From: Ginglymostoma cirratum
Lineage: Eukaryota
Length of the DNA: 64,000 nt
Direction of reading: 5' to 3'
NCBI GenBank assembly: GCA_024137785.1
Contig: JAHRHZ010000048.1
Coordinates: 12,690,256-12,754,255 of the forward strand
Shown: in pieces, positions 23,101-62,015 of the stretch
Position numbering within the stretch: the first letter of the stretch is position 1
Layout: every line of letters starts with the position of its first letter
Notes under the pieces: model-generated
The model's database searches: none
What the model saw: the letters and a program-made list of their open reading frames with translations, nothing else
What the model was told of the DNA's origin: nothing
Translations under genes and position numbers: made by a program

Positions 23101-26100
23101 TGTCGAAGCATATAACCAAAATAGTAAAATACAAGCCCAAGAAAGTCAAGGCTACTTCAAGAACAGAGCGCTAGTCAGACCACACCTTCAGCACTATGGC
23201 CAGTCCTGGTTTCCAAGAAACATGGGAAACATGGGAGACAATGTAAAAACAGCCGCAAAGTAAATCCTTGGTATTAAAGAGTTAAGTTATTAGGAATGTC
23301 TGGAGAGAATTAAACTTTTCAATCTGGATAAGGTGGTGCCCAAGGTATGATCTTACCATGGCACATAAGAAAACAAATGGATAATTTGAACAAGGTTAAT
23401 TAGCAACATTAACTTAAAACCAAGAGTGCAACTAGGATAAGGGGTACATACTTGAACTACTAAAAGATAATTTGCTATCAGTACGTTCTTCATTATCTAC
23501 CAAAAAAGTATTTACAGCACAATGACTACACATTTGGCTCCAGTGACCCACGGAACAGCAGTGCTCCAAAACTCCTAGAACCTTCTTGATCAAACCCCAT
23601 CAACATATCCAATTTCTTTCTTCCTCTAGTCCTTTGCTAGCTTTCAACGGGTATTCATTTCAACAGCTCCCTGGAGTAGAGAGTTCCACGCTCTAATCAT
23701 GCATTGGTTGAAAACATTTCTCTTGAACTCCATTTTGGATTTATTAATTATCTTTTATTTATGGCCAATTTTTGCTCTTGGCCACAAGTGGAAACACTTT
23801 CTCTGCATCTACACTATCAAACCCCATCATAACTGGCCTCCATCAAGTCATTCCTCAGTCTTCACTCTTTTGGAGAAAACAGCCCCAGCCTAATAAATAT
23901 TACTGTGCAGTTCAGGTGATCTAGCCTTAGTACAGACATATAGATGCACTGGTGCAGGCAAAAATCCCAGAACTAAGAGGGACTGAATGTGGTTAGGAAC
24001 TGGGATTGCCTTGTGGTTTTGAATTCTCTCTCTGTTCTCCTAATAAAGATTTAACTATGATTATACAACAGCGCTTTAAGAGTGAGTATGAGCTTCCTTA
24101 AAAAGATTCAATTTATCCATGAACAAAGAACAGTCAACTGTCAAGGTAATTAGACATTTGTTTGGAAGAAATGGACTGCTGAATAAATGCAGTTTTGGTC
24201 AATTAGAAATTGCCTTCTTTCCCTGCTAGAATATAACAGTATGTAGATATTTCATTATTCATTTGGAGATTCTAAATAAAACATAACGCAACATTCTTTT
24301 CAAAAGACACTTAAAAAAAATCACATGGCTTAAAGCTAATTGCTTGGACTGAAAGTGTGTAGAGAGATATAGATAGGTTAAGTGAACAGGCAAGGGCCTG
24401 GCAGATGGAGTACAATGTTGGTAAATGTGGGGTCATCCATTTTGGTAGGAATAATAGCAAAATGTACTATTATTTAAATGGGGAAAAATTGCAGCATGTT
24501 GCTGTGCAGAGGGATCTAGGTGTCCTTGTACATGAATCAGAGAGTTGGTTTGCAGGTGCAGCTGGTAATTAAGAAGGCAAATGGCATATTGTACTTCATT
24601 ACTAGATGGATGGAGTTTAAAAATAGGGAGGTTATGCTGCAGCTGTATACGGTGCTGGTGAGGCCACACTTGGAGTATTGTGTACAGTTTTGGTCTCTTG
24701 AGAAAGGGCATACTGTCACTGGAAGGTGTGTAGAGGGGGTTCATTAGATTGATTCTGGAGTGGAGAGGGTTGGCTTATGAGGAGAGATTGAATGGACTGG
24801 GACTGTACCTATTGGAATTTAGAAGAATGGCAGAGATCTTATAGAAATGTATAAAATTATGAAGAGAACAGATAAGATAGAAGCTGGGAGGTTGTTTCCA
24901 CTGCCTGGTGAAACGAGAACTAGGTAACACAGCCTCAAAATAAGGGGAAGCAGATTTAGGACTGAATCGAGGAGGAACTTCTTCACCCAAAGGATTGTGA
25001 ATCTGTGGAATTCCTGCCCAATGAAGCATTTGAGGCTACCTCACGGAATGTTTTTAAGGAAAAGATAGATGTTTGAACAGTAAAGGAATTAAGAGTTATG
25101 GTTAGCGTGCAGTTAAGTGGAGCGGAGTCCATGAAACGAGTCCATGATTTTAATGAATTGCAGAGCAGGCTCAATAGGCCAGATGGCCTGCTCTTGCTTC
25201 GGCACAGTGGCTCCGTGGTTAGCACTGCTGCCTCACAGCACCAGGGACCCGAGTTCAATTCCACCCTCAGGCAACTGTCTGTGTGGAGTTTGCACATTCT
25301 CCCCACGTCTGTGTGGGTTTCCTCCTACAGTCCAAAGATGGGCAGAGTAGGTGGATTGGCCATGCTAAATTGCCCGTAGTGTTCAGGAATGTGTAGATTA
25401 GGTAGGTTATAGAGGGATGGGTTTGGGTGGGTGCACTGAGGGTCAGTGTGGACTTGCTGGGCCGCAGGGCCTGTTTCCACACTGTAGGGATTCTATGATT
25501 CTATTTCTTATTCTCTTGTATACTGGAAACCAGTAGAGTTTAGTAGAGACAGTCAGTGGACTCCCCCAGTCTCAAGTGTAACAACAGGGCAGTGATTATG
25601 TCTATCACATTACTATCATATCATATCATATCATAGTGGAAATGGTGATTCTGATGGGACCTTCGCACCAAATTTGTGTTGCAATAAACTAACACGGAAT
25701 GGTAAGAAGCAGCTTAGTCTTAACATCTTAAGATGACCAAAACTCATCCATATTATTCACTACTGAGATTCAAGTGAGTGGGAACTTCGGCAGTAAAAGG
25801 TCTATTATTTTGATGCTTCAGAGATAGTAAGAACTGCAGATGCTGGAGAATCTGAGATAACAAGGTGTAGAGCACTTTTCTGAAGAAGGGTCTGGGCCTG
25901 AAACATCAGCCCTCCTGCTCGGCCTGCTGTGTTCATCCAGCTCTACACCCTGTTATCTCTTATTTTGATGCTTGCTGCTTTTGTGCATTCTACTGGACCC
26001 ATTTAGGACCATAATAATATAAAAACATTGATATAATACAGACCCTGTTTGATAATAAACCTGATTTGCATCATCTAGCATGAAAACATGAAGCATGAAG

Positions 26101-29100
26101 CATGAAAACAGAAACCTTCAATCACACACTGATCATTTTGTTCTACAAAACTATGCAGTAAAAATCAGAAAGCACATCATTCTGTATTGGTTAATTAAAA
26201 GATCTTTATACCAGGAGAAGCTAACCAATACAAAGAACACAACAATGAGTTTCTAAATAGTGATATTTGTTTGTATGCATTAGCCCTTCACAGACCTCAA
26301 GCTATCAGTATCTGGAAGGCAAAAGATTAATGATTTTAATTACTGACCCATAAAGCAGGTAACATTATGTCCACAATGGAGTGCACGGCACAAAATCTTA
26401 TCAATTCCATTTTTTTTAAAAAAGACCAAAATAGCAAAATATTTTCATTTTAAATGCAACATTTAAGTTAGTTTATAGCTTTTTTAACTCAAACAACTCA
26501 GTCTTCTAATTTAACAGTTTTAAAACCAAGCACACCCTCATGCACAGAGATAGTAAGAACTGCAGATGTTGGAATCAGAGACAGTACAGTGCAGTGTTCA
26601 GAGAACACAGCAGGCTCCTCTGATGCTGCCTGGCCTGCCGTGTTCCTCCAGCTCCACACTGTGTGGTCTTACACCCTCTCATGCATAGTTGGGTTTCATC
26701 AATCTACAGAGAGAGTAATTGCAAATCAATGTTGTGCATTTTACTGCCATCTAGCGTTCATGAAAGTGATCAGATCAAATTTCAAGAAAGTCACTAAAAC
26801 TTAAATAAACTGAACAGTTTTCTCATCTTCCCTTGTGATTTGATTTTTTTGGTGGGTATTAATTATAATGTGAAGGCCTTTCTGACATTGTTTATATATT
26901 TTTAAAAAGAATGCTTTACATAGTGGAGGTTTGAGTATTGAGTAAAAATCTTGAGTATTGCTGAAATTAAAGACATTTTGTTAAAGCTATTCATCTGGCA
27001 CTCATCACAATTTGTGAGGCATACCGATGTAAAAGGGGAAAACAACATTTATAATGTATCAGGGGAGAGTGTTGATTGGTTGTCAAGTAGACTCTTTGGT
27101 AGAGATGTTGCTCTCGAAATGCACCAGTCATGCATCAAATTTACGTAATCCTTTCTGCTTGGCAAACATTATCCAACTGTGAGATATTGTTAGTAATGTT
27201 TTCAAAGGGTATTTTTTGCCTATTCTGTCAGTGGAAGTATAAATTGCTTTTTTGGACTGTCCTGACCTCTCATTTGCCTTTCCCAGAAGAGACAGGACTA
27301 GCTGAAAGATAGAAAGTGACATTTTATCCTGCTGGTTGGGAGGGAAAACTTCTAAATGAGTCTATGACCAGCCTTAAAGTGAGTGCCCAAGGAATAAACA
27401 GCTACATTAAATTCAATATTTATTTTCAATAACACCAATAATAAATGGAAAAGTTCAGGGTCCTCCCAAAATAATTTCTCCCAAGTCTTTGTTTTTGAGC
27501 AGAACAGTAATATGAATTTTTCATAAGAAACAACTGGTGCCTGGAAGAGATTTGTTGATTTGTTGAGATTTGTTGAGATCTGTTGATTTGTTCAGGTCTT
27601 TCAAGAAAACAATGATTTCCAACATGAGAGATGTTTTTCAATTGTTTCTTCATCTCCTGGTGGAGTTGTTATTCTATTTGAGATCAGGGCCAACTTCTAA
27701 CTTGTGATCTAACACAATCTAGGTTACAAAGATGTATACATACACCATCCCTCCAATAGCATAACTGTATTTCACGGTAACTCCTTATAACCTTACAAAC
27801 TCCGCCTTCCATTTACTCTGGCCCACCACTATTGCCAAACCTTCAATTACCTACATCCTATATGATGGATTTTGCTATGATACTTTTTCATAATATGTGC
27901 ATTGTTGTTGTTGCAACTTTAACCAATTATTGTATAGCCACCAAACAGGATGACATTAAAAATCAGGAGATGTCATCTTTCCTTTCAGGCAACTGTTAAG
28001 GACATTTTTATACCTTTAAGCCAAATCATAATGAATTAATTAGCTACCAATTTTCAGGATTAACTTCTCACTAGTGCGAAACAGAGTAACAACTCATCGA
28101 ACAGTGGCACAGATTACACAAACAGTCTTAAGTAATCTTTTTTCAATCTACACACTACCAAACAAATAAACTGTACCTTCTATCCCCTCCAAACCGTTTA
28201 ACCATGCTATAGATAGCCAAACTTTTATAGCATGCCACCCAGTTTAAATGCTTGGACACTGTTCTAAAAATATAATTCAAATAGATCTAGTGTTATTCTA
28301 GAATTAACAAAAGATGAACTATAATGTTCCTTCAACTGGTGATCATTTGTTTTTATTTGACTAATTTCTTTTAAGATTTACTGTATTCTTACCTATTCAC
28401 TTAGATATCAACTGTGAGCACATTGGTTGATTTTGAAGAAGTCCGTTTCACAAATCAGATATTTACTAGAGAACAAAACCATGGGGGTAGTGCCCCTACA
28501 TTCTGGCCAGGAAGACTGGGCTTGAGCCCCACTAGTCCTGGCTGTGTATCATATATCTTGTCTAAACAAGTTGATTAAAATAACGACAGTGACCTTCCTT
28601 GGGCTCTTGCGACACAGTGGTAGAGTCCCTGCCTCTGGGCCAGTGGTCTGAGTTCAAGTCCCATCTATGCAGGAAATACCTACATGTCCAAGCAGGTCGA
28701 TTAAAATAGCTACAGGAACTTATGACCAAGCAAGGCTCAGTGGGCAAAAGGTGGGATTAAAGATCGTAAAATTCTAACTGAAAGTGAACTGCAGTTGCTC
28801 GGCCAATTACATTCTGGGAATTATTCAATAAACAAGGTCAAAACGTAAAGATGACTTGTACAAATAACTGAAATGAATAATTTCAAAAAAAAATGTAAAT
28901 TTACAGTATCTTACATATTCAGAGCTCAGGCCTGAGCTGGTGGGCTATCGAAATCTTGCATAGGGTTTACTCAGGTTTATTTTTAGACTGGTTTAATTTT
29001 ATGGCCTGGAAGGAAGACAGGGCAAACTGAACTGAAAAGAGTCCAAGATCAGCAGACAGTGGAGGGTGGGATGGAGACAAAGTGGTACACACCGAGTGAG

Positions 29101-32100: not shown

Positions 32101-35100
32101 ACCCATTCTGTACTTTTGCAGGAGATTTTACAATGCTAAAATTATAAATGCCCTTATTGAATCAGGAAGTCAAAACATTACTCAACTTGCTTCTCTCTTT
32201 AATCATGAGATTGATTTCTAGAGAATGAGAGCTGGGGTCTGTTTCTCAACAGCTCTGGCAACAAACAAAGAACATGCCAAGAATGTGAAACTGACATCCG
32301 TGCTGACATACTGAGCTCTTTTCAAAAGCTGCCTCTCTGCTCACTCAGAAGGTAAAAACAACAGCTGATGATCCATCAAGGTCTCACTGGGGTCTCAGTT
32401 CCAGGATTCGTCCTTAATCTGCACCTGCTGTTCCACTTCGCATAGCATATAACGGGCACAGTTAGCTGGCAGGTTATTGTGTACTAGGAACGTAATCACA
32501 TGACGTCATCCAAATGCTTGCTGGATGTTCAGAAGATCTGCTCAGCTTACATGCTACTGGCTTTGCAATCAATAAAAGGCTTGGTATTATCGAACACAAA
32601 CCTGAAACTGTCATTTGAGTAAAGCAAATTCTGTTGAGTGTTTTAGAAAATACCCTGTATATTAATTATATTGGTATGTTTATGTGTAACAACATTACCT
32701 TCTACTGGTAGGTCAACGTGAACAATTAACTATACAATGACAAACCTAAAGAATTACTTAATCCTCTTTACGCTGTAATTTTAATTAAAGTATTAACAGA
32801 GCATAAAAATTAACAGTTGAGTTGCAAGGCTCAACCTTCAGGGTAAAAGTAAATGGAAGACTGGGGTGATATTGAAATGAACTTTGAGTTTAGTCACTTC
32901 CTTTTTACTATGGTGAAGTTCCTTCTAATCTTACACGGCAGCTGAGATGAATTCTGAATCAGTGCTTCCCAATTTGTTTTCTGCTGTGACTCCAGTTTAA
33001 TAATGCATGTTTGGTGCAACCCCAGAAAGAAAATTGGAATGGGAGTAAAGACTCATTGTGCTGGTGAGAGATTGAACAGCAGAGATGCAGGCACATACTG
33101 CCATTCAGTGTCGGTGGGGTAAAATCCTGAACTTCCTAACTGTATTGTGGGCATACCTACAGCAAATGGACTGCAGCGGTTCAAGGAGGCAGCTCCCACT
33201 ATTTTTTCAATGGGTAACTAAGGGTGGGCAATAAATGATCACCCAGGCAGCGACATCCATGTCCTGAGAGTCAATGAAATAAAAACAAAAAACGAGAAAC
33301 AGAAGACACCTCCCATTTTCTGGATCTGTTGCTGTCAATGAGCTCACTGGATGAAGCCACAGACAAGCAAATAAAAAAAAACACACACATTTAAAGTGAC
33401 CTTGTAGCCAATCCTTGGACTGTCAAATATTGGTATCTGCTCCACAGCCACTGAGCGATGATCACTCTTGTCACACTTTGGGAACCTCTCTTCTATAAAG
33501 TGTGCTGCTTCACTGTATGCTACATACCTTTGACTAGTTTACTAGAATTTTAGTGTTGTACTGGACGTTAGATACAGCATAAACAGGGATCTCTGTTTCA
33601 CTTTGCTTCAGTACATTCTGATCTTATTCCTATTACTTGCCAGACTGACAAATCACATGCTGCAAGTTCAGAACAAACTTGTTTTAAAATCAAGCTTGTT
33701 ACAGGCTTGAGACACAAGACTAAACTTATTTTAAATTCAGATTTGCAACACCTAAAGATTTTCACCTCATGTTTGCAGAGTTTTCACCAAGGTTAACACT
33801 ACAGAATCGAGCACAAATAACTCAGATTTTACTGAATAATCGCATTAAGAAATCAAAATAGATGCATGTTAAATTCAAAATGCCAGTCTCAAAACTTTGT
33901 TGATCTGTTAAATGTCACTTTGCAAATATTCCAATTATAGAATTTGCACCATCTGCCATATACCCATAAAAGTGCCAACCTATAACGATTACCTCCTTTC
34001 AAAGAAGGTTCGTTTTTAAAATGATCATATATTACCAAATGGAGGACATCAAATTCCCTTCCAAAGACAGAAAGACAACATCCTTGGGTAACTTCCCATG
34101 AACAACAACTAGTTATTAGGCCATAGATGTTAAATAATTAGATGACTACCGGAGGTTAGGCCTCTGACACGATCTGAAGGCTGTGAACCCAGCTGAAGTT
34201 ATGTTTGTTCATGGACATTAAACTTCTTCTGGCCCAGGATCCTGACCCTGATGCACTGAGTGGCCAACGTACAAGCCTTGGGACTGATATCAGAGACTGC
34301 CCTTAACTTACTAAACCAGGATCCCTTGACTGAGGCGGTTTCCCTTGATTTAACCGATGACAGCTGACAACCATGACAAGTTTCCTGGCTTTGTGGCTAA
34401 TCTGCAAGGCAAGACATAAGTGATGGGAGCTTGGTATTGTAGGGTGCCAAAGCACAACAATGGATGCTAAGGCAGGGATGTTGTGAGCATCCAGGCAGGC
34501 ACAAAGTGACTGAGTGTTAAGGGAGGAACAGAGCAGTTCTGGGACGCAGCCTGGTCCAGTCTGTGAGCTGTGCGCAAAACGTCCCTGCGGCAGCATTTCA
34601 ATGCAAGTTGTCAGTGCACCCCAAAGTGCCACTTTAAAGTGCGGAAGCAGCATGCAAGTGGACTGTATCAGAGATAAAAGGTACTGCAGATGCTGGAGAA
34701 TCCGAGATAACAAGTATGGGGCTGGATGAACACAGCAGGTCAAGCAGCATCATACGAGCAGGAAAACTTGACGTTTCGGGCCTAAACCTTTCATCCATGA
34801 GGATCCTGACAGGCTGACAAGTGTCCATCACCAGCATCTTTGGACAGTGGAGAGGTGAAGAGCCAGGGTTAAGTGTGGCAAGTTGCCCTAGACTATGCCC
34901 TGAGACGTTGTTGCCTAGGCTTTCCAGGCTGCCATCTTGGAGACAAGTGAACAACTGAAGTTGCCAGGTACCTACTCTGTCTGGGTGGTGTTGACACCTA
35001 ATTTTCTCATGGCAGGTCACAGAGTCGGAAGCTGTCCAGTAATGAGCAAATACATCAACAAGAAATATTCCCTGTTGAGTAGAATCTTGCCACTCATTAG

Positions 35101-38100: not shown

Positions 38101-41100
38101 CCAAAGCTTATAAATGATGGAGAATGTGCGGCTCTGCAGCCGGTTTGGAGGCGAAAAGAGCACAAGTGAGATTTTCAACAACCACACCATAATGACAAAA
38201 ATGGCCAAGCCAGTTTATGGTGGCTGGTAATTTGACATTTCAATTGTCATATATTTTCTTCATGAAAACGTGGTGCTGTGGTTTGTGTATATTCTAACTC
38301 TAGATTTCTTACATTGCCTGTGACATGCCAGCAGGGCGATATTCCAAACTAGACTTTGCACAATAAATTGGTGTGTGACTGTTACTGGCTATGAGCTGCT
38401 TTGTGTTATCCTAGGAATTTTAACTGCAAATCTCTTCTTTATAAAATTGGCTTATCATGTATCTGTGTGATACTCAAATGGAGCTTCCCTTCTTAGAAAC
38501 TAAAATTGTTAAGGTAATAGTAGAGCAAGTGAAGTTTCTGCAGATTTTCAGGTTATAAACCAGATGATGGTTGAAGATTTTGCAACAAAACCTTGCTAAG
38601 TACCATCTTGAAGATACTCCATAAACCTTTTGGAGTTTGGATGGAAGAAATTACTCTATGCATTCTCAAATGTGCATGTTTAAACACTAACAATGCTTTT
38701 AAAATAATTAAAGGCTAGTGAACAAAAGGCTTAAGTAGTAGAGAAATAGTAATTTCAATCATTTATACACTAAACTAAAGTAAATGCTGAATCATAACAA
38801 ACAGATTTATTCTGATAAGGATCAGCATTATGCCAGAGAGACGCAGAAAAAAGCACCTATTCTGAACAATTACGTGAGCAAAATGGCAGCACAACAGCAT
38901 AAATTTCTTAACCCAGAAGTTTCCAAATGCAAATTCCAGCGGGTTTGAGCTTGTAAGTTGGAATTGAAAGGATGAGGAAGATTTCATATCGACTTTGCAC
39001 GGCAGAGTAAAATGGATGATAGCAAGTCAGCCACTTATTTTATGCATCTTCCAGTCACGTCAAAAGAAATTAATGAAATTGCAAGAAATACAAAACAGGT
39101 TACTGACTCATTATTACTCATGTAATACTATCGCACAAAGTAGATACGTAACCCCGAGTGCAATAGCATTAATTCCCCTTTTCTACTGACAGTAGGTTAA
39201 ACTATTGAGCTCATGCCAGGATTTTTGCTTACCCACAGGGCTGGTGCCTGCACCATTCGGCATTGTAAGGTCACCCATCATTCCACCTAGAGCAAAACAG
39301 AAGACAGATCCAGCTATCAATCAAATGCATTAGAAACACATTCTCAATTTATTGGCAATAAAACTGGTCCTAAATTTACTTTATGAAGAGGGGTCGAAAT
39401 AAATCAAGTTTTGTATGATTAACTGAAAATACATTCCTCTTAGAACATCAAGTAAGGCTCTTTAAAGTTGCATATTAAACTGACAGCGTTTTAGCAGACT
39501 AGTACTCAATAGAACCTTCAAAAACAATAATGTATGTTGAATAATATGTATGAGTAAACTCAAAGACAGTATCTACTAACAGATTACAGCTATAGATCAA
39601 GGTGCATGTACTACAGAATGGCTGTAACGTGTCTAAGCTTTTGATTAAATCACTATAAATTAACAGTAGTTGGGAAACAAAATTAGTGCCACAAACTACT
39701 GTGAGGTTTATCTGTTTAATCGATATGTTAAAGTTACCATGTAATCTTTAACATTTCAAATGCTATTATGTAATCTATATCAAATTTCAGTAAGCAGCAA
39801 TTTATCTACATTTCATTCAATCTAGTCCACTGTATTCACTGTTCTTAATGTAGTCTCTTCTACACTGGGGAGATGAAATGCAGACTCAGTGGCTGTTTCG
39901 CAGAACACCTATGTCTGTAACAATGGCTTTTTGCTTCCAGCTGCTTGCCACTTCAACACACCATGTTCCCAGGCCAACATTTCTGTCTCAGGCCTGCTGC
40001 AGCGTTCCAGTGAGCCTCAGCACAAGCCTGAAGAGCAACATCTCATTTTCTACTTCAGGACCCTGCAACCTCTGGGACTCAACAACGAATTTGTTAACTT
40101 TAGAGCCTGATTCTGTCCTTCCATGCTTTTCTTACCCATCCCCACACTCTGGTCCCATCAAGACATGAGTTGCTGTCAGCACAACTTACCTATTCTCTTC
40201 TACCCTTAGCTCTCATTATGATTTATGTGACTTCTCTTCTGTCCTGGCCTTCTATCAATGATCTCCTTGTCTCCCTTTCACATCTCTCTCTTTTTTTTCT
40301 CTCTCCATGCTCCGTCTCCACCGATCCACTCACTTCTCGCTCCACACCCCTCCCAATCTCAGCCAGCACAAATACCATTTTTTCCTATCTGCTATCAATT
40401 CTGAAGAGGAGCCACTGGACTTGAAATGTTAACTCTTCTCTCTCCCCATAGATGCTGCCAGACCTGCTGAGTTTCTCCAGCAATTTCGGTCTGTGTTTCA
40501 GATCTCCAGCACCCGCAGATGTTTGTTTTATTGAACTTGAGTAGTTTGTCTAACTCAACAACTTTAAAACCTACTCTAAACCTATAAAACTCAAAAAAGA
40601 AATTTGCATTTCTTTAGAAACTCATTACATACACAATGTCTAATACTGCTTTTAATGTGCAGTCTTTTTTTTCTGGGTTGTGGGTGTCACTAGCAAGTAC
40701 AGCATTTGTTGCCTGTGTCTAATTGCCCTTGAACTGAGTGGCTTGAGGGGTCATTTCAGACAGCAGTTAAGAGCCAACCATATTGCTGTGGATTTGGAAT
40801 CCAATGTAGGTCAGACCAGGTAAGGAAAACAGAATTCCCTCCTTTAAGGACATCAATCAATCAATGTTTTGTAACAAATCATAGTTGATGATAGTTGTCA
40901 TGTTACTAACTCTAAATGTAAATTGGTGAAGTTTGTACTTGTCCCCAGAGCATTAACCTAGATATGTGATTTCCTAATACAGTGACATAACCGCTCCATG
41001 AACGGCTCCCCTGTCAGTGTCGTTAGCAGATATGGCGACGGAGTTTCTCACAAGGTCCAAACATCAAATGAATTATCAAATAATATTGCATGCCTTCCCT

Positions 41101-44100
41101 CACTGATACATTTTAATGTTGGTCATGCCCTGAGATATTGTGTCCGTTCTGCTAAACTGAGCTAAGCCCATGTAGCTGTGCTTGCAAATGGACTGGTTCC
41201 ATCCGGCAAGGAACCTTGGTTCCAAACCCACTGGTCAACTTAAAAGAAAAAGGCTGCAGCTTGGCAATTATACCCTACTGGTAGCCTGAAACAGCGCTTC
41301 CAGCACCCCCAGAGAGAGGGGATTGGATTTCATATGATTGCCTCGCATTTCTAGCAGTCCCAGCAACTCAAAGGTGGGTGTTGCTGGGATGTCAAAAAGT
41401 CCTTCAGGTGAAAAGGGCACAGCCACAGAGAGGCAGGCCTGGAGTTTTGAATGGGGATAGATCAGGAGCCTAGGAGGGTGAAGGCGAGGAGTGCGGTGTA
41501 GCATTGTCTGAAATAGTTTTCAATAGCTTGCGTTCTGGTTTCAAAATTCTGTTGGGTATATTCAGCTTGAAATATTACTTCAGTTCAAGATTTTAAACTG
41601 AACAAAGTCGAGTAGTTCTTTTTCCCCTAATTTCTGTTGATAATGGATTCTTGCTTTCCAAAGGTTTTGCCTGTTCTTTATTTTGTCAGAATTCATTGAT
41701 CCTTAGTTTATAACTCCAGAGATTAAACAACAAAAGACAGCCGATTAGAAGATTAATATCTTTACCCTTTTGACAAAACTTTCATTAAGGCAGTAGCGAT
41801 GATTATTGTTTATTTTGCTCTGTGACCCACTGAGGGCCTCTCCTTCGGTTTTCTAGGCCCAAAGTTCTGGAAATTCCTTCCATACACTTCTCCATCTTGC
41901 TTTCCTCCACCAAAATACTCTTCAAAACATACCTCTTTGGCAAAACGTTTTGTCATCTGACCTAAAATCACCTTGAATGGCTGTGTCTAATTTTGTATTT
42001 TACTGCTCTCCTGCAAAGTGCCTCGATACTTCCCATTATATTAAACGTGATACAATTCTTATAGCTAAACCTTAATGACAGTTTTCTAGTACACAGCCTT
42101 GCCTGCTGGGAAGACAAATGAGGATAAACTATCCACAATTTTCTCAACTGATGAATTTTCATGCATCATCTATGTGTGGCCCATGTACAATCTACCAACA
42201 TGCTCAACCCCCACCCCCAAAACATTGGGCAAGGTACCCAAGTTGTAAGTGTGAAACCAGAAACTTATCTCACGACTATTTGGGGGTGAGTTACGGCAAT
42301 CTAAAATATATTTTTCTAATTCATGCGCTCATAGGTTCCTAATCCAAAGGAAAAGCTCTCTCGCTGCGTGTCATCTTTCTCATCACGTTACATTGATGTG
42401 GTAATGTTCTATATCAATGCCGTGGCTGCAACAGTTAGATATCTAAGTATACCTGCACTACCAGCACTGGGTGGTCTCTGCGGAGCCCCTGGTGACACAA
42501 CGTTTCTGGGCAGTGTAGCTTGAGGAGGCGAAAGCATGCTGGTATCTGTTAGAGATGTGGTTACCAATGAATGAGTTACAAGAGAGCTGCTTGGGTGGCT
42601 GTAGGTTAGATTATTTGGGTTGCTCACTGGAACTGCAACTGGCATTGCAAAGTTTTGTGGCGGCAAACCAGGCTGCAAAGAAATCAAAAAAGACATGTTA
42701 CTTCAATGCTAATATACATTTCATTTCAATAAAAGAAACGGCAAAGATGTCTGTGATTAATTGAGTTTAGGATGTACTGAATGCTTTTAAATGTACAAAA
42801 GTATAGCATTTATGATGAATTTGCACAATATCCTAAAGTAGTATAATGAGCACAGATTTAAAGTCTGCCATACACAAGTGAACACAAAGGCAGGTACATA
42901 CAATTTTCATCTGCCCAATCTTTTAAGGGTCGTTACTCCTGGCTCCATTTGATACAACCAACATAGCAACAGTTATACTCTTCCCAAAATTCATGTTAAA
43001 TAGATCTTTCTGTTACTTCACAAGCACGGGCTACCTATGCACCCAGGGGCCAATTTTTTTTTTTTTAAATTTCCCACAATTCATGGGGTGACAACCAGCC
43101 TATGAGTTTGCAATATGCTGTGGAGGCAGATAAGGTGCCCCTTCACTGATGCGCACTCTGGAAACCAACTTTCTAATACTTGAACTGGAAATAGACACTC
43201 TAGAGACAATGATAACAAGGTGTGGGGCTGGATGAACACAGCAGGCCAAGCAGCATCATAGGAGCAGGAAAACTTGACGTTTCGGGCCTAGACCCTTCAT
43301 GCTTGCTTGGCCTGCTATGTTCATCCAGCTCCACACCTTGTTATCTCGGATTCTCCAGCCTCTGCAGTACCTATTAACTCTAGAGGCAATTTCTTCTTTT
43401 ACATTATGTTCCTCAATTTTATAGAATTGAAGTATAAAAGCTGAAACAAAAAAATGTCTAATTATTGAACCCAGAACAATAAATCATATGAGTTCCTAAG
43501 CCAAGCACTTTGATGCATCACTGGTAACCAACACCAAATAGTAAGAATAACCACACCAATTTAAACCCCGTAAATAGAAAAAAAATGCATTTTATTGCTA
43601 GTTATTTATCAGGAGTTATCAATAATTCATTAGCCAAAATTTTCCTAAAAATGCAATGCTTGCTAGATGTTACACAACAGTTTTCACATCAGTGTACATG
43701 TGGCTCAGAAGCCAGAAGCATTTTTCTAGTTGCATTATCTATTTCAAAATAAAGTCTTGACAAAGGACATTATGCAAACTATTCCATAAATAATGTTAAT
43801 ATTTAAAATAGAACCAAGTCTTCTAGTACAGTGGTAGTGCTCCCCCTTCCCCTACTAGACCAGAAGGTCCAGTTTCAATTCCCATCTGCCATGGAGGTTT
43901 GCCATAACATGTCCAAAAAGGCTGATTAAAAGAACATCAAATAGAATCACATGTCAAATAAAATTATGCAGAAATCAGCAAGAATGGACAGACTGAATAA
44001 AAACTCATATATGATATTAGTATATTACTGTAACTTCACAACACAGAAATGCATGTTTCTCAAAAGCAGCACAAAATTAAAAAACAAAATGTGACATAGC

Positions 44101-47449: not shown

Positions 47450-47665
47450 TTGCCATAATCTCAAAGGACCATAGGGCTGCTGCCTCATTAGATAGAGACA
47501 ACAGGTGGTGCGTTTAGCCCGAAGGTCACCATGCCTCGGGTGAAGGGTGAGGTCGAGAAGGAGGGACCTTCACGGTGACCTCAGCCGACATGGGAATTTA
47601 ACCTGTGCTGTCTGCATTGCAGCATTGGAAACCTGCTGTCCAGTCAACCGAGCTAACTGACGACA
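47450..47665 (-). mobile_element. tRNA-derived SINE relic
   Basis: gggaatttaacctgtgctg...ccagtcaaccgagctaac reverse tRNA-like head. Confidence 0.5.
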
Positions 47666-49575
47666 GGGTTAAATCACAAACAAATTTACAAGTTCCCTTA
47701 ATTTGGTCACATTTCACATCACGTGAAATTACGTCATAGGATTGTTTACATGAATGGTTCAGAGTTGAAAGGAAATGTTATACACACACTATTTAAGGAA
47801 GGGACAAAAAATAAAGATAGTGAAGTGTGGTACCTTGCTTTCGATATGCAAACTTGCTTTACACATGGGTGAAATTCTTCATTATCATACATTTTTAATA
47901 CAATCTGACAGCATAAAAATAGGTCAGTGCAAAATGGTTGGAGCCAATTATTTGCATGATGGAGCATATTTGTAGCTGTCACAATGCACAAATACGAGTT
48001 AGTGTGTTAGGAACTTATAAACAAAAAAGAAAACAAAAGTTATACATTAATAACATTTATTCTGGAAGTTCTGGCAGTAGAGATTCAACTTGAATAGAAG
48101 AAATGGGTGACATCACATCAGGAGTCAATGATGTGTGTTGTACATTCAAGTCAATGGAACTGATACAAAGCACTAAGTGTTGCATATACCAGTCAGGTCA
48201 CATAATGCTACCCATTTTTGCTACTTTGAGACAAGTTTCTACTCCTTGATGTCTTAATGCATACCAGAACTCATTAGAAATTCAGATAGCCAAAAGACTT
48301 CCCTGCCAGTCACTATGAATAGATGGAAAATGTAGTCAATGCCCACTATATTTATTTCCTTGATCTTGCAGATCAGACATAATTTATAAGTAAGAAAGGA
48401 TTCTTTTTAAGAAAAAGACTGCATACAATTCTGACATTTAGAAAGATTCCAGAGTTGGCAGCAGGTTGTTCCAGTTCCTGAACCACAAGAGCTTGTATTT
48501 ATTTAGCATAATGAATGTAGTAACAGAACAAACTATTCCAAAAGAGTCTCGCAAGAGTGCTAGCAACCAAAATTTGGCATCAAAAGACATAAGGCGATTA
48601 GGACAGGTGACCGAAAGCTTGGTCAAAGGTTCAAGGAGCTTCTTAACTGACAAGAGAGGAGAGGCTTGGAGAGGCAAATGCAGAGATTGTCTATCAATAA
48701 CATAAAGATTAAAATAGGGGTAAGTAATATTTGAGAATGGAGGAGTGCAGGGATCTCGGACTTAACAGATTGGGTTTGGGGATGGTGGTGAGGTAGGGGC
48801 AAAGCCAACAAAAGCTTTGAAAATTAGGGCAACAATCTTAAATTTAAAGGCATAACCAAGCTATTGTAAATAAAACTTAGTTCAGCAGGTAATTCGATGG
48901 ATTTCAGAAAGCAGGTATAGCATTTGCACAGCAATTCTAATTATTTAAGGAAATAAATTATGAAGTTTCTGATGGTTTGCAATCGGATGGAGATTTTTTT
49001 GATAATGACAATCTCTTCTTCTTATGAGTTTACAACTATTTCTTAGATGTGCAGGATCAATAATCAATAAGTAGCCCGAGATCAAAGTAAAAATTAATCT
49101 ACTGGTGAAGGGTAATATTGTCTCAATTTCAGTTGAAATGGTTTTGTTGAGTGAGATTCATAGCCCTGAATCTTGCCTGGTTTGGAGCAAGCTCTCTTGC
49201 TCAACCTACCACTCTTTACCTCATTAATTAAGCAACTCAGCTCTTGGGCACTGTACTTGTGGAACTGTGCGAGCAGAGGAGTGGTCACTGCCCAAACACC
49301 TGTCATTCAGAACTTTGGTGCCATATTTGATGCCCAGGTGCACACCACTTCAGATGTGCAAGCTCAGAACTGACCATTACTGTTCCTTTTCATTCATTTG
49401 TGATGTGGGTGTCTCTGGCTAGACCAGCATTTATTACCCTTCCCTAACTGCCCAGAGGATAGTTAGGAGTCAACAACATTGTTTTGGGGCTGGGGTCACA
49501 TATAAGCCAGGTGAGGTAAAGATAGCAGTTTCCTACCCTAAAGGGCATTATTAAAACAGAAGGGTTTTTCTGACA

Positions 49576-49698
49576 CAAAAACAAAGTTGCTGGAAAAGCT
49601 CAGCAGGTCTGGCAGCATCTGTGGAGGAGAAAACAGAGTTAACGTTTCGGGCCCGGTGACCCTTCCTCAGAACTGATTTACAGCATCCGCAGTTCTTA
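49576..49698. mobile_element. Short Penelope-derived insert (family B) nested in an older SINE
   Basis: Similar to 40396-40530; flanked by gggtttttctgaca (49562-49575) and ggggttttctgaca (49699-49712). Confidence 0.8.
49637..49674 (-). ncRNA. Minimal (Penelope-type) hammerhead ribozyme motif, intact core
   Basis: Minus strand reads AGTT-CTGAGGA-A-GGGTC-ACCG-GGCCC-GAAA-CGTT-AACT: stem I AGTT/AACT, 5-bp stem II (one G-U), CUGANGA and GAAA boxes. Confidence 0.75.
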
Positions 49699-52600
49699 GG
49701 GGTTTTCTGACAATGGATTCATGATCATCATTAGATTCCAGATTTTTATTGATTTCAGCTGTCATAGTAGGATTTGAACCCAGGTCCCCAGAACATTCCT
49801 TGGATTAAGTCAACTAATAATAAGCACTAGGCCATCGTCTTGTGTTTTACTGACATCACGAGGAATTGGCCCAGAGGAAAGCCTGCTCTATGCTTTGCGG
49901 ACATGGAGCTGCAGTGTTGGTAGTCAGCAAGATGGAGAGGTGTACCTTTTCCCATGGACAACCACAAGAGGCTGCATCATCAGACTAAGCCAGACTGGAC
50001 CCAAACTGCAGCCCAGGTCTGTGCCCTGGGCGAAGCAGGACACCTAGCAGTTCAGAAAGAAATTCAAATATCTTCTGTGCTCCAGGGGCAAGTACCACCA
50101 TTTTCTCTCACACTCAAAAGACCACCAACCACTAACTGTCCTAATGCACACACCTCTCAATATGGGTCACAAAAGTACGACTTTTTGTATTGAATGCATC
50201 ATGCCTAAAATATGCCGTACTGCCTTCTGTGCTTTCTGCTCAGTCAATGGGGACACAACAGCACTTCTCCTGCACCTGCATCACCACCACCCATTATCTA
50301 TCCACTTCCAACAAATCTAATCTCACCTTTTGTGGAATTATTGGAAAAGTTGGTCACCTCTCTGAATTGATGTCTCCACAGGACCCCATCTGACCTACCT
50401 GGAATCCACGGACTAGATGTGCTTGACTTATAGGATTGGCTGTGGCCGAACTGCAAAGATGCGGATTCCTGGGCTTTGACAGGACCAAGTGCCTGAATGA
50501 CCATGGACACCCTCATGGACTGGAACAAGGTGAGCTCCCTGACTGATTGTGTGGTGTCTCCTGACTGGTCATAGTACTCTTTCACCACACTAAGGTCTGC
50601 TTCCCTTTGATTTTCACACATGGCCACTTGCTTGAAACACATGCAGTTTGTCTGCCATGTAAACTGCTGGTACGTGCTTCAGGTGTGAAGTTGCTGCTAC
50701 ATAGTACAGTCTAGTAGCATACCCACCAAATTGACTGTTCAGTGCTCCCCACCGCAACAGGTTGCCTACCCTCCCTTTGCACATAAAGGCAATACAAGAC
50801 ACAGAGGCTGGCAGCCTATGACTAAGCACAAAAAAACCCTGTGAGCTGACAAAGCAATGAGATGTAGACAGAAGCAGGCATCCTTCAAGGATGTACAAAA
50901 AGTGAGTGAGTGCTAGGAAAGCAAGCTAAGGGCCATTAGACACATCCTGCACAGTTGCACAAGATGCAAGAAAATCCCAAGAAAATCAACCCAGCGAAAG
51001 CATACAAATCACAGGTATCCCAAAATAAAGAGTTAAAGGGATGAAGTGGTGTGAGAGTTGGTCTGAGGGAGGGCACAATGATATTGTGAGGCTGGTAGTT
51101 CGCCAACACCGACTTCTATGGAAAAAGGGTCAAGATCGAGGAGGGTGGTGGCCTTGGAGCACACAGGGACATTGTGACAAAGCAGAAACCAGAATAAGCA
51201 AATCCGTGAGCTGCAGCCATCAGGTATCCATCCATCAGGAATTTGTGCCATCTCATTTCTTGAGGACAGGAGCACAGAGTGGTGCAGAAGTAAGATGAGC
51301 TGGGGCTTTAATGAGGTGCAAATGCATGAAAGTAAGGTAATTGCTGCTCAATGATGAGAGTCTAAAGTTTCCTTTTAAGGCTTGAGGGGAAAAAATTTGC
51401 AAATATTTTTCTCACAGCGAGTTTCTAATTTTTTCACGCTTTCAGAATCTTCCCACCTTTCTTGCCAATGCTCACGCCACACAAGTGAGGGGAAATATTT
51501 CACCTTACTATTTTATAAAAATGGGATACATTCTTCACTGGAGACAACATAAGAAATTGAAATGCAGGGCTTTTAAAAGAAAAATTGGAAGATGAGGTGA
51601 TCAATTATCAGAAGTTACAAACGAAACAACAGGTACAGAGTTAGGAAAAGGACAAAAAACCCTCTGCAAACTATAATCCAGGTTACCTACAAAACGCATA
51701 TTTCTGAGCTTTCTGCATCTCAACTAACAATAGCTCAATAACTAAGTCATTAGTATATTAGTAACAAATCAGAAACTTAAATGTTATTATTTTTGACCTA
51801 TACATGCATTAGTTTAGTATATGAAGTTCCCTCTTCAGAGTTCACCTTGTATACACGCAGTATAAGAAAATGGAATAAAGTTAACCAGATTGAACAACAC
51901 ACAAATTTAAGCGGAAAGAGCAAGCATTCCCCCATCTGCACAATAGCTAGCTTATTTAGTGATTTCTGTTCATAAAACATGAGCTCAAATTTCAGAAAAA
52001 AAATTAGATTAAATGATTTATACTTGCCCTTATTCTTCTTTCCAAGAAATTCTTTACATAATATGCGCAGAACACTGATTCTATCTGTAATTTATGCAAA
52101 TGAATGAACACAACTTGCCAAACTGCCTAGATTGCAAGAGAGAACTAACTTGTTGAGGGAGTCAACTGCAAATTACCATAAAAGAAAATCAGCTTGGGTT
52201 CCCTTTCTAAATGAATATTGTTTCTCCTTTGCACTGGGAACTTGACATGTTGGTTTCCATTTTAAAAATTACCAGAAAATCCAGCAGGAGATTGTCTCAG
52301 TTAAAACTTGCAAAACCTAAAGCCATAACTAGCCAAGTCCAAACAAGTTCTGGGACTAACCACATGGAGGTAGTAGAATAAAAGCATGAAACCAGTGCAG
52401 TCCAATGCACAGGTCTTCGCTCCACACCCGACAAACTTCATCTCCAATCTCTCCTTTTATCCCTCACCACAAAGCTCACAATGACCAATCTTTCATCCAG
52501 CTATTGGCCATGACCACTCGCTGCCCCCATTCCCTCTTGAATACTCGGAATCATCCTCAAGCATTCCAGCTCATGGCCTCCTGTTGGTAACTTAGCTCTG

Positions 52601-52704
52601 TGTCCTCAGACTTATCGGGTTCCAGTGCTGTTTTTAGTCTTGCCTGCACATTTCCAATAAATCCATAAATATGGAGAATTTGGTGTTCATTGACAGAAGC
52701 ATAC

Positions 52705-55719: not shown

Positions 55720-55897
55720 TCAAAGGACTGCGGATGCTGGAAATCAGGAATTGCTGGAAAAACTCAGTAGACCTGGCAGCATCTAGCAGTTTGAAATCAG
55801 AACTGATTTCAGTTCTGGAGAAGGATCACTGGACCTGACAGTTTAACAGTGCTTTCTCTCCACAGATGCTGAGTTTTTCCAGCAACTTCTGATTTTG
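55720..55897 (-). mobile_element. Fold-back family B insert (decayed hammerhead)
   Basis: ttgctggaaaaactcag inverted against ctgagtttttccagcaa; central cagttctggagaaggatcactggacctga. Confidence 0.7.
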
Positions 55898-56118
55898 AAT
55901 GATTCAGGGAACCAGTGTTAAGAAAATTTAATTCACTAACAGATTGTTATCTATACAAAATATTCAATAAAATACAACAAGATAGTTAGCAGTATTATTT
56001 TTAGATTCGTTGTTTTCAGACAACAGGGATGTAAGTCTCAAGCTTGAATGAACTGTTATCTATATTCGGCATTGCTTAACTTGGACACCCCCCTAAAACA
56101 CAGCAAATAATTTAAACT

Positions 56119-56332
56119 GAGATAACAAGGTGTAGAGCTGGATGAACACAGCAGGCCAAGCAGCACCAGAGGAGCAGGAAGGTTGACGTTTCGAGCCTGG
56201 ACTCTGAAGAAGGGTCTAGGCCCGAAACATCAGCTTTCCTGCTCCTTCGATGCTGCTTGGCCTGCTGTGTTCATCCAGCTCTACACCTTGTTATCTCAGA
56301 TTCTCCAGCATCTGCAGTTCCTACTATCTCTG
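56119..56332 (+). mobile_element. Fold-back Penelope-derived insert (family A) with hammerhead motif and 14-bp TSD
   Basis: About 80-bp inverted arms; CTGAAGA-A-GGGTCTAGGCCC-GAAA-CATC at 56204-56231; perfect TSD AAATAATTTAAACT (56105-56118, 56333-56346). Confidence 0.85.
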
Positions 56333-57854
56333 AAATAATTTAAACTATTTTTCTGTAAAAAGTCTCCCCCCTCACCCCACTTTAACAAAGTTACATTTGT
56401 CTCATGGAGATCTAAAATAATTTATATTTGACATCACAGAATTATCATGGACTCAGAAAAGATATTACAAGATTGATTTGTTTTATAGGCTCCTACCTAT
56501 TGCCTGAAATCCATTCAAAAGCTCAGCTGTTTCTAAGTAGTAAATAGGCCTCCCATTTTATAACCCTGGTGGTCAAATTTCAAAGGCTCACATTTGCAAC
56601 ATTTGGACAAAAATTTAAAAAATTCCAGTGTTCTAATTATGTGATGCTACTTGCACTTTTATCAGTTACTTACTTCTCAAGCCAATAACAATTCTTTTGC
56701 TCAGTCCTAAACACTCATAGCTCCAATCATTTCAATATCAATCTGTATTTAAAGAAAATAAACATGACAATTTAACTCACTATCGCAAAAAACAAACTCA
56801 AAACAGGAAAAAGCAATTCCATGCACATAATTAATCCACCCTTGGGAGGTGCATTCACAATCCACAGACTGCATTCGTGAAAAGTGCTTTGGTTTTGCAC
56901 CAACTGTGCAATTACAGTGTAAATGTTGCTTGGATGTTGCATGGGGAGCTGACCTGACACCAGAAGGAAGCTGAGTAATCTTGACTCCCTACAGGAGGTT
57001 GCTTTGCTGTTTCATTTGAGAGCCAGTTTGGACCTTGGCACCCAATTTACACTCCAAGATTAGCACTAGCGTGAAGCTCTGCACAGACAATGAATTTGTT
57101 GAGTGCGAAGGCACTGCGACTGAAAGCATAATTAACACCAACAGCAAGCACAGGCAATTCTTTGCAATTTGTTGACTCTTCTAAATTACCATTAAAGGAA
57201 TGCTGGGAAGTGTTGCCCCTTAAGAGACTGCAGTGCAGACAGCCTGCACACCATCCTATTCCTCAATGTTAAACTCAAATTGGAATATTGGTTCCTTCTT
57301 TTAAATACATATAAAATATATATTGTATACGTGATTCTTTGAAATTATATTCATAACATATTATTAATTTTACTGATTCATTTTGTTGTATCAAATGCTT
57401 TATATTTTGCTGTTACTAATACCTGCCTGTTGTGTGGTTTTATTTGTGGTTTTGAGCCTCCAAAGCCTCCTTTCTAGCTAATTTCCTGTTTACTGACTCT
57501 AAAGCTGCTTCAGTCTCTGATGATTACTTGTTTATCATGTACCCTCTGTTCATGCCTAACAAAATATAATGTAACATAACTGAAAATAATATATGACATT
57601 TCACTGTAATTATAATTCACTTCTTGGTCCTTTTAGGCATGCTGTTACACATTTACAAAACATTACACCTGGTGTAATTTCAATAATACATGGAATTAAA
57701 AAAAGTTACTAGCACTATCTTTTGAACTGTCACTAAGAAGGGGAGACACACATGGGACAATTTTAAACCTCCACGGTGGTAGGAGAGGGGCTTCGCAATT
57801 ACCAGGGACCACCCTCTGCCTCCTACCACAGGCTTTAACGTCCCCCGTCAAACT

Positions 57855-58213
57855 GGGGTGGCACTGGTTAGTGGTTAACACTGCTGCCTCATAGTGCCAG
57901 GGACCCAAGTTCTATTCCAGCCACAGGTGACAGTCTGTATGGAGTTTGTATGTTCTTCGTGTCCAGAAGGGTTTCCTGTGGGTGCTCCAGTTTCCTCCCA
58001 CAGTCCAAAGACTTGCAGGTCAGATGGACTGATCATGTTAAATTGCCCATAGAGTCCAGAGATGTGCAGGCTAGATGGATTAGGTATGGGAATGCAGGGT
58101 TACAGGGATAGGGTACGGGGTGAGTCTGAGTGGGATGCTCCTTGGAGGGTCAGTGTGGACTCGATGGGCTGAATGGCCCGTTTCCACACTGTAGGGATTC
58201 TACGATTCTATGA
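57855..58213 (+). mobile_element. HE1-like SINE
   Basis: Same head, V-domain and gggattctacgattctatga tail. Confidence 0.85.
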
Positions 58214-61200: not shown

Positions 61201-61394
61201 CTTTGAAGTTTCATTTACGTAAGTGAAGATAAATCAGCTTCTATCAGTTATTAAAGGATATGGGGCTTGAATATTCATTCAGGGGTGAGGAATATCACAA
61301 CTTAAGGTTTGGGAGTTGGCTTGTCAGATAATCAGTGGATCCTGGTGTTGGAGGCCAGATGGGAAACTCTGCAGAACTCCCAAAATTGTTTTTC

Positions 61395-61520
61395 TGGAGG
61401 TGAGGGAGAGGGAGAGGGAGAGGCAGTGGAGGAGAGATGGTGGGGGCGGGGGGGGGGGTGGGGAGGGAGTGTGGGGAAGAGTGGGGAAAAGTTGGGTGGA
61501 GGGGAAAGAGAAAGAGAAGG
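61395..61520 (+). repeat. G-rich purine tract with G-quadruplex/triplex potential
   Basis: (GGGAGA)n followed by multiple G4-G11 runs. Confidence 0.8.
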
Positions 61521-61797
61521 CCAGTTATTACTGATATCAGGCACTTTTTTCCATGCATACTGTGCCTCTCCTCTCCACCCACACATTCCCACCCTGAGCC
61601 CACCCACTGGCCCAGATATGTTCCACGCCAACCTCAGCAGCCTGTACTGCTGACTGGAAATCCCAGTTGGTGCAGGTATGGCCTTTGATTAAAAGTAACT
61701 TGTAGAGGCTACCCACTGCTTTCATCTGATCTGGATCCTGACCTTGCTTAAAATTTTGACCTTGGTAATTGTGAAATCAAACGTTCTTTAATAGCTG

Positions 61798-62015
61798 ACA
61801 CAGCGTGGAGCTGGAGGAATGCAGCAAGCCAGGCAGCATCAGAGGAGCAGGAAAGCTGACATTTTGGGTCGGGATCCTTCTTCAGAAAATAGGTTTCTGA
61901 AGGGTCCTGACCCGAAACATCAGCTTTCCTGGTCCTGTGATGCTGCCTGGCCTGCTGTGTTCCTCCAGCTCCACACTGTGTTATCTCAAACTCCAACATT
62001 GGCAGTTTTTTCTGA
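61798..62015 (+). mobile_element. Fold-back family A insert with 15-bp TSD
   Basis: Inverted arms around ttcagaaaataggtttctgaa; TSD GTTCTTTAATAGCTG (61783-61797, 62016-62030). Confidence 0.85.

Follow-up and report, generated by a model that had tools for sequence, protein, structure and literature searches.

A stretch of 64,000 nucleotides from the shark Ginglymostoma cirratum (GenBank assembly GCA_024137785.1, contig JAHRHZ010000048.1, positions 12,690,256 to 12,754,255 of the forward strand; this whole stretch is termed the window below) contains 11 short inserts, most of which are fold-backs carrying a hammerhead-like motif or remains of it. These inserts are truncated insertions of the known endonuclease-positive (EN+) kind of Penelope-like element (PLE) and do not form a new class of ribozyme-bearing retroposon. 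Judged from their sequence, they represent the pseudo-long terminal repeat (pLTR) of PLEs encoding a reverse transcriptase (RT) and a GIY-YIG endonuclease, with a predicted minimal hammerhead inside the pLTR, and they were very probably made, extremely 5′-truncated and dead on arrival, by the RT/GIY-YIG protein of such elements. The best overall explanation is that of dual-primed, severely truncated Penelope insertions, to which we assign a probability of roughly 0.7. The analysis covers the window, six loci of a distant relative (L001-L006), protein matches and published papers.

End pairing and target-site duplications of the inserts

The inserts measure 81-218 bp each and sum to 1710 bp, which corresponds to 2.7% of the window and to about one insert per 6 kb. 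This bears out a preliminary description of the same DNA, in which about 11 inserts of 80-220 bp had been listed. Two profiles built from the arms detected no further copies in the window at E<0.1, and none of the 11 inserts contains an open reading frame (ORF). The two sequence families distinguished in that description, A and B, can indeed be told apart; they cross-match down to E 8e-10 in the profile search, however, and this homology makes them two branches of a single lineage. The inserts are the following (TSD, target-site duplication; arm positions are counted from the C of the CUGA box as +1; coordinates include the TSD where one is given):

3004..3084 (+), family A single tailless arm, +14 to +94; no TSD found
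19093..19231, fold-back of family B with the tailed arm inverted at 19093-19146 and the tailless arm at about 19148-19231; no TSD found
22862..23053 (insert 22861), old fold-back of family B with the tailless arm inverted at 22862 to about 22950 and the tailed arm at about 22955-23053; no TSD found
25805..25973, fold-back of family A at 25819-25959 with the tailed arm inverted at 25819-25873 and the tailless arm at 25876-25959; TSD 25805-25818 / 25960-25973
26532..26685, fold-back of family A at 26545-26670 that lacks the hammerhead, with the tailed arm inverted and the tailless arm starting at +38; probable TSD 26532-26544 / 26671-26685
34669..34795 (-), family A single tailed arm, +3 to +129; no TSD found
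43197..43390, fold-back of family A at 43211-43381 with the tailless arm inverted at 43211-43300 and the tailed arm starting at about +46; TSD 43197-43210 / 43377-43390
49561..49712, fold-back of family B at 49576-49697, composed of an inverted tailless arm that has the full hammerhead and of a tail-only arm; TSD 49561-49575 / 49698-49712
55720..55898, fold-back of family B with the tailed arm inverted at 55720-55785, then a filler and the tailless arm at about 55809-55898; no TSD found
56105..56346, fold-back of family A at 56119-56332 with the tailless arm inverted at 56119-56203 and the tailed arm at 56204-56332; TSD 56105-56118 / 56333-56346
61783..62030, fold-back of family A at 61798-62015 with the tailless arm inverted at 61798-61889 and the tailed arm at 61894-62015; TSD 61783-61797 / 62016-62030

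Nine of the 11 inserts consist of two arms lying head to head, both outer ends of which are 3′ ends of the element abutting the TSD, and the remaining two (3004 and 34669) are single arms. The arm 3′ ends of family A fall into two narrow classes, a tailless end at +88 to +94 (6/6) and a tailed end at +124 to +129 (6/6); those of family B lie at about +97 or at +123 to +131. Each of the nine fold-backs combines one tailless with one tailed end (P = 0.002 under a free 50:50 choice), the tailed end being located on the left in four and on the right in five of them. The tail comprises 35 nt and is unpaired in the DNA fold of 56119 (56298-56332), as had been noted before. The layout proposed in the preliminary description, i.e. 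an inverted arm together with a one-sided 35-nt tail, is present in all nine fold-backs, but the arm which usually reaches the hammerhead is the tailless one, and it may stand on either side.

Five inserts are flanked by clear TSDs, 14-15 bp long and with no more than one mismatch: 25819 (14 bp, exact), 43211 (14 bp, one mismatch), 49576 (15 bp, one mismatch), 56119 (14 bp, exact), and 61798 (15 bp, exact). None of 600 random intervals matched the lowest score among these five, and the five TSDs reported previously are thus confirmed. A probable sixth TSD at 26545 has 13 and 15 bp at its two sides, which differ by one dinucleotide, and its score of 8 lies inside the tail of the null distribution. 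The narrow length range claimed earlier is found as well (13-15 bp in the window; 13 and 15-17 bp in two insertions of the distant relative), and the duplications are mildly AT-rich (68% vs. 60% for the window).

The internal junctions of the nine fold-backs all differ. As read by eye, overlaps of 1-2 nt are present at 26545, 43211, 56119, and 49576, and fillers of 2-4 nt at 25819 and 61798; the junction of 55720 has a longer filler with a small hairpin of the hammerhead 5′ edge, and two junctions are too decayed to be read. Nine different junctions, distributed over both families and several variants, fit a fresh truncation at each insertion and not the amplification of a master copy, which argues against the non-coding retroposon class posited in the preliminary description.

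Short, palindromic, and TSD-flanked sequences such as these, the family A ends of which share a 6-nt word that mimics a terminal repeat, resemble a miniature inverted-repeat transposable element (MITE), i.e. the derivative of a DNA transposon with true terminal inverted repeats. In the inserts, however, one end always carries 35 unpaired nucleotides, sizes and junctions vary, a uniform structure with inverted repeats at both ends is absent, and the sequence is that of the 3′ end of RT/GIY-YIG elements. To our knowledge, TSDs of 14-15 bp fit no common DDE superfamily. Because of the linkage to the GIY-YIG remnant described below, the MITE reading is refuted and its probability negligible, in line with the earlier warning that the inserts could be mistaken for such elements.

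Two 6-mers of family A recur before each 3′ end, at +76/+94 and +106/+127, and the first of them recurs in family B as an 8-nt word. The tail resembles a second copy of the preceding 30-35 nt (56274-56332, 40474-40532), the two 3′ ends having equivalent positions in the two copies. In four of five arms, the 30 nt upstream of the near end give a better alignment with the tail than with shuffled tails (P 0.003-0.009; 0.06 for 22861), in a test that was suggested by the data and in which the arms are not independent. A clear equivalent of this repeated end module was not seen by eye in the distant relative.

Penelope-like parents and the hammerhead motif

One copy of the family B pLTR is found in place behind the remains of a Penelope-like gene:

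39792..40110 (+), decayed 3′ end of a Penelope-like ORF with predicted GIY-YIG endonuclease; in-frame stop, frameshift near 39912, stop codon 40108-40110
40111..40400 (+), pyrimidine-rich 3′ untranslated region (UTR); CCAAT 40353, TATA-like word 40367-40374, initiator-like word 40395-40401, with a presumed promoter role
40401..40532 (+), in-place pLTR of family B, composed of a minimal hammerhead (40401-40434), a body, and a tail that ends at about 40532

The pLTR starts 290 nt after the GIY-YIG remnant (39792-40107) of this 5′-truncated element, which confirms the match of family B to the 3′ end of a GIY-YIG element (40396-40530) recognized in the preliminary description. Neither a TSD nor an inverted arm was found at this long remnant. 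Its coding part matches GIY-YIG-bearing elasmobranch proteins in tblastn (E to 3e-15), and all nine relatives looked up are elasmobranch (whale shark, skates, and a stingray). Among the relatives, P0030 has a Pfam match to GIY-YIG above and to RT below the cut-off, and in P0033 both are above; in the remnant's own peptides, GIY-YIG was not detected by Pfam. A word-based search with a 71-aa piece of the remnant gave no match among longer proteins, and an exhaustive search with the remnant peptide gave 23 matches, including P0021, an unrelated bacterial repeat protein. From the domain order we take these elements to belong to the Penelope/Poseidon clade.

A candidate RT/GIY-YIG partner of family A, the full-length form of which the preliminary description had sought, is indicated by a short match in P0031 of Stegostoma tigrinum (zebra shark), a 522-aa prediction with RT motifs and GIY-YIG. 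The C-terminal read-through peptide of this protein matches the in-frame family A hammerhead in 9/12 residues (pairwise E 0.002), exactly where a pLTR should be located, and by eye its end agrees with the translation of copy 34669 in 8/9 residues. An exact 24-nt family A pattern had no match in the genome-contig database. With the GIY-YIG remnant in front of family B and the P0031 end matching family A, the Penelope origin assumed earlier is supported for both branches.

A distant relative with about 50% protein identity is represented by at least six copies (L001-L006) in DNA of eukaryotic type. The one genome-contig record in which they all lie is labelled as a bacterial metagenome-assembled genome; it contains eukaryotic DNA with an animal-type Penelope element. 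L001 has an open frame of 775 codons. The relative's hammerhead is located 99 nt after the stop codon and is 80% identical to that of family A over 40 nt, its helix I has 3 bp, and its tail measures about 55-60 nt (by eye). Most copies were seen to have a core variant in which C replaces U4 in the CUGA box (L003 1991-1997). In L002 and L006, where both ends are visible, a tailless end at about +91 to +98 is paired with a tailed one (2/2), and the TSD matches are 13 and 17 nt long, microhomology included. The inverted arm of L005 is tailed and its other end is lost, and a single end is visible in L001, L003, and L004.

A descriptor of the full minimal hammerhead has four matches in the window, all of them in these repeats (25880, 40401, 49670 on the minus strand, and 56204), and on 200 shuffles it gave no match in 177 and one match in 23. 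The copy at 40401, 290 nt after the stop codon, thus conforms to the previously assumed minimal hammerhead within a pLTR. That most inserts carry a hammerhead or a decayed form holds in so far as three of the 11 have the full motif and seven a partial one, but 26545 has none. The full motifs are located in the tailless arm of 25819 (25876-25959, with a 14-nt internal deletion), in 49576 (from 49670 downward), and in the tailed arm of 56119 (56204-56231). Core boxes, the bulged base, helix II, the palindromic helix III, and the NUH triplet are present in both families, and helix I has a length of 4 bp in 49576, of 2 bp in each of the remaining three intact copies, and of 2-3 bp in the family A copies seen. 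A Rfam scan at E≤1 did not find the hammerhead and returned three weak unrelated matches.

Helix II is paired in 82% of the cells in an alignment of 13 window arms and in 96% when six family A arms are combined with six copies of the relative, in both cases far above slid controls. The covariation scores, computed on alignments whose helix I columns include junction and flank letters, are likewise well above slid controls; they were reached by 279/500 and 46/500 shuffles, respectively, so that the stem II covariation expected among the copies is not above shuffles. The single-strand RNA folds of five arms have z values of -2.2 to +1.2, four of the five being no more stable than shuffles. A further helix, formed in the RNAalifold prediction between about +47 to +53 and the tail in both families, is not claimed because its covariation term is positive. 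Metazoan minimal hammerheads require a tandem dimer for cleavage (PMC4209133), and since head-to-head copies cannot form such a dimer, self-cleavage of the stub hammerheads is unlikely.

The 5′ limit of the arms and a proposed route of insertion

The 5′ breakpoints of the arms are non-random relative to the hammerhead motif, yet they are not set by its cleavage. The cleavage site is located at +28 in family A and at +30 in family B; 13 of the 20 short arms begin upstream of it (12 of them well upstream), one begins within 4 nt of it, and none extends past about 6 nt before the CUGA box. The limit that recurs coincides with the 5′ edge of the motif, which lies about 30 nt away from the cut, and the family B arms reaching furthest stop at -5 (49576) and -6; in 19093, the left arm starts at +78 and the right arm at +13. 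Tailless arms begin between -6 and +14 in nine of ten cases (8/10 if the decayed 22861 arm is read conservatively), and tailed arms in three of ten. Truncation with a constant hazard is rejected for the tailless arms (P 1e-5 to 1e-3, depending on the detection floor) but not for the tailed ones. Of all 21 arms, 7.7 would be expected to pass -6, but only that of the long remnant does so (P 8e-4).

The preliminary description had read the breakpoints as the record of a ribozyme-delimited RNA template. Their non-randomness and a limit at the edge of the motif have stood, whereas a pile-up at the cleavage site was not observed; given 13 arms that start upstream of the cut and a single one near it, the limit is not cleavage-set and the template was uncut. 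This agrees with results on the Poseidon element of the anole, in which hammerhead mutants left insertion unaltered and no reads ended at the cut (PMC11167929).

A non-autonomous retroposon class similar to retrozymes or short interspersed elements (SINEs), whose RNA is excised by the hammerhead and mobilised by a Penelope protein, is favoured by inserts that are very short, dense (11 in 64 kb), and free of ORFs, with the hammerhead at a recurring limit, and animal non-LTR retrozymes do come from pLTRs (10.64898/2026.07.22.740005). Against it stand the arm starts, the nine different junctions, the absence of head-to-tail arrays among the profile matches and the window repeats, copies without upstream promoter words, and a helix I of just 2 bp in three of the four intact motifs. 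This explanation is largely refuted and very improbable.

The mechanism we favour as probable comprises two nicks and two internal priming sites. A protein dimer would nick the target strands 14-15 nt apart, leaving 3′ overhangs, and each 3′ end would prime reverse transcription inside the element RNA, one at a near site at about +94 and the other at a far site at about +129; the 35 nt between the two start sites would be the known tail. The two cDNAs would grow toward each other, stop, anneal via 1-2 nt of microhomology or a short filler, and be filled in, which would yield an insert of two head-to-head arms, tailed at one end and tailless at the other, within a 14-15 bp TSD. The template would remain uncleaved, the hammerhead being a passenger during insertion. 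The anole Poseidon protein cuts and extends both strands and has been modelled as a dimer, it uses two internal start sites bounding the tail, and hammerhead cleavage is dispensable (PMC11167929).

For the 5′ limit we consider it an evenly balanced proposition that the cDNA runs off at the transcription start of the pLTR, 4-6 nt before the CUGA box. With priming on the pLTR copy at the transcript start, the cDNA would leave the 5′ end of the RNA after about 100-135 nt. In the family B remnant, an initiator-like word ends at the CUGA box, a TATA-like word is located 30 nt before its A, and CCAAT is found at -48; in the sense copies of the relative, TATATAAA occurs at -39 in four of five and CCAAT at -63 in five of five. 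Usual promoter spacing puts the start near -7, given the relative's TATA word at -39.

A serious rival, if a doubtful one, retains dual priming and attributes the 5′ limit to an obstacle in a longer RNA, either a stall or template switch of the RT once it has unwound the hammerhead or a splice junction directly upstream of helix I. The 5′ ends are spread over 20 nt (-6 to +14), several of them inside stem II, and the small 5′-edge hairpin at 55720 (55790-55815) has a counterpart in L006, where the inverted arm stops at the hammerhead 5′ edge in a short slippage-like repeat derived from stem II (385-425). Family B has a pyrimidine-rich stretch followed by YAG directly before helix I in two of the three copies that reach it, and the D. 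virilis intron ends at helix I (PMC4209133). Long arms, however, cross the hammerhead (the 40401 remnant and the sense copies L001-L004 and L006), the pLTR folds of four of the five arms are no more stable than shuffles, and the arms have no common exon-1-like filler between them.

Single priming followed by snap-back of the cDNA, or by later gene conversion or deletion between the inverted pLTRs of a longer insertion, is improbable. The near-symmetric hairpins of 56119 and 61798 around the hammerhead 5′ edge would suit such a course, as would the general tendency of inverted repeats to suffer deletions. In seven of the nine fold-backs, however, the tailless arm contains sequence that is absent from the tailed arm, which excludes simple snap-back copying; a later deletion would not repeatedly halt in one 20-nt zone and at the same time remove all UTR sequence, and the UTR of family B is found nowhere else in the window.

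Several points weigh against dual priming with run-off. The data come from a single 64-kb window, the arm ends were read by hand from alignments, and the outer ends of 19093, 22861, and 55720, which have no TSD, are placed by alignment alone. The arms within an insert are 83-89% identical in three inserts and 68% identical in 26545, and identity between inserts is up to 98%; arms of one insert are thus no closer to each other than to those of other inserts, and one common template RNA is not supported. In the bulk reads of the anole study no difference in start site was seen between the strands (PMC11167929). The initiator-like word precedes 78 of the 682 CTGA sites in the window (11%), the shark remnant is without a canonical TATA, and family A upstream sequence is covered for 4 nt only. 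In the relative, the inverted arm of L005 reaches -12 to -16, beyond the start predicted from the TATA word (about -7), and the long arm of L002 and L006 is the tailless arm.

More tentatively, two-primer insertion could be hard-wired and asymmetric, with run-off pLTR cDNA as its main product in sharks. The dimer would have a fixed stagger of 14-15 nt, and each of its subunits would take one of two tandem RNA recognition modules, the second of which would be formed by the tail as a diverged repeat of the preceding 30-35 nt. With one module per subunit, every insertion would receive one tailed and one tailless end, and with internal priming a pLTR at the transcript start would yield a run-off, "strong-stop-like" cDNA. 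In that case, perhaps 10^5 hairpin-forming, hammerhead-bearing stubs would be present across the genome, and one mechanism would explain the inverted pLTRs, the tail, and the TSD.

Comparison with known systems and neighbouring sequences

An inverted pLTR, a one-sided tail of 30-40 bp, and a TSD are standard features of PLEs (PMC3846280, PMC8557442, PMC8969392). The shark inserts share with EN+ PLEs such as Pen2a_Av (PMC3846280; scheme in PMC8557442) the inverted pLTR beside a 5′-truncated copy, the location of the whole unit within the TSD, the tail of 30-40 bp at one end only, and TATA and initiator-like words in the pLTR, but nearly all of them consist solely of pLTR sequence (81-218 bp), and they have TSDs of 13-15 instead of 8-10 bp. 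With PAc of the anole they have in common two internal starts bounding the tail, priming on both strands, an uncleaved RNA, and a hammerhead about 100 nt upstream of the start sites; that study is based on bulk reads, and the sections compared do not report the pairing of sites per event, the stagger length, or the 5′ limit (PMC11167929). The motif corresponds to metazoan minimal type I hammerheads in its CUGANGA box, one bulged base, G-C-closed helix II, GAAA, palindromic CG for helix III, NUH, and short helix I, and it differs in the 2-3 bp of helix I in the family A copies seen and in that most shark copies are truncated or decayed (PMC4209133). The supplement file of the same paper that was searched has no shark entry, and the paper describes opposite-strand hammerhead pairs in Schistosoma that are 100-700 bp apart (PMC4209133).

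Animal non-LTR retrozymes resemble the inserts in being short, ORF-less, hammerhead-bearing, and pLTR-derived (PMC7229834; 10.64898/2026.07.22.740005). Retrozymes are head-to-tail tandems that are processed from cut to cut into circles, whereas the shark inserts are head-to-head, single, and not bounded by the cut (PMC7229834; 10.64898/2026.07.22.740005). Neither tandem units among the profile matches or repeats nor more than one arm (1/20) starting at the cut were found. Twin priming of L1 is also similar, as two primers per target are used, the 5′ part is inverted, and the parts are joined by microhomology inside a TSD; in L1, however, the arms do not overlap and the second start is variable, whereas in the shark inserts the arms overlap and both starts are fixed.

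PLEs are reported to have expanded in the introns of the whale shark (10.1101/443036). Searches of the full-text literature, in which most subscription papers, with early Penelope work and Repbase reports among them, were not covered, turned up no article dealing specifically with short fold-back stubs of PLEs in sharks, and a fixed stagger of 14-15 bp and the 5′ limit are absent from the compared parts of the PLE papers. The overall architecture is published; the strict end pairing together with the narrow TSD length, the 5′ wall, and the repeated end module are apparently undescribed in the PLE papers compared. The cycle by which Penelope elements transpose is described as still undefined (PMC8557442), and the single in vitro system stops short of complete insertions (PMC11167929). 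Since both primed ends are preserved in the stubs together with the junction and the TSD, all within 250 bp, a shark assembly should yield a very large and easily parsed set. By counting in such a set, one could test the two-primer model along with the stagger and the hammerhead's role. Such stubs are also prone to mis-annotation as MITEs, miRNA-like hairpins, or exons.

Translated family A sequence was observed in six predicted proteins (P0001-P0004, P0005, and P0006), one of which is named from zebra shark and one traced to whale shark; they include an annotated ZNHIT3 isoform of Stegostoma tigrinum. These cases represent exonisation or an artefact of gene prediction. An open frame of 42 codons runs through the family A pLTR and tail at 56207-56332 (+), beginning at the position of the AUG within CUGAUGA; it is broken in 34669 and 40404. 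As the pLTR and tail of other PLEs carry the first codons of the ORF (PMC3846280, PMC11167929), the stubs may be ORF-start sequence. In family B, two words consisting of a pyrimidine tract and CAG (about 40430-40452 and 40495-40502) resemble 3′ splice sites, one being located after the hammerhead, where it is followed by ATG in other copies, and one at the tailless end. PLEs carry 5′ introns.

The surroundings of the inserts are most likely intronic shark DNA. A 142-codon frame at 7885-8313 (-) resembles the last exon of what we take to be a MEF2 gene, which suggests a location of the inserts within this gene or close to it. Another GIY-YIG remnant, older and followed by the beginning of its UTR, is found at 13349-13720 (+) and is 62% identical to that at 39.8-40.2 kb; no clear pLTR follows it. 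A second interspersed family, whose members measure about 300 bp and have a tRNA-like head (8742-8996, 25201-25498, 35778-36056, 37535-37844, and 57870-58205), resembles the HE1/V-SINE group of sharks, and decayed RT fragments of the LINE (long interspersed element) type at 24330-24660 and 30559-30940 (+) are, we assume, derived from CR1/L2. A tRNA-Thr-like sequence predicted by ARAGORN at 10587-10678 (-) is probably the head of a SINE, and a 100-N assembly gap at 62478-62577 adjoins an (AC)n microsatellite.

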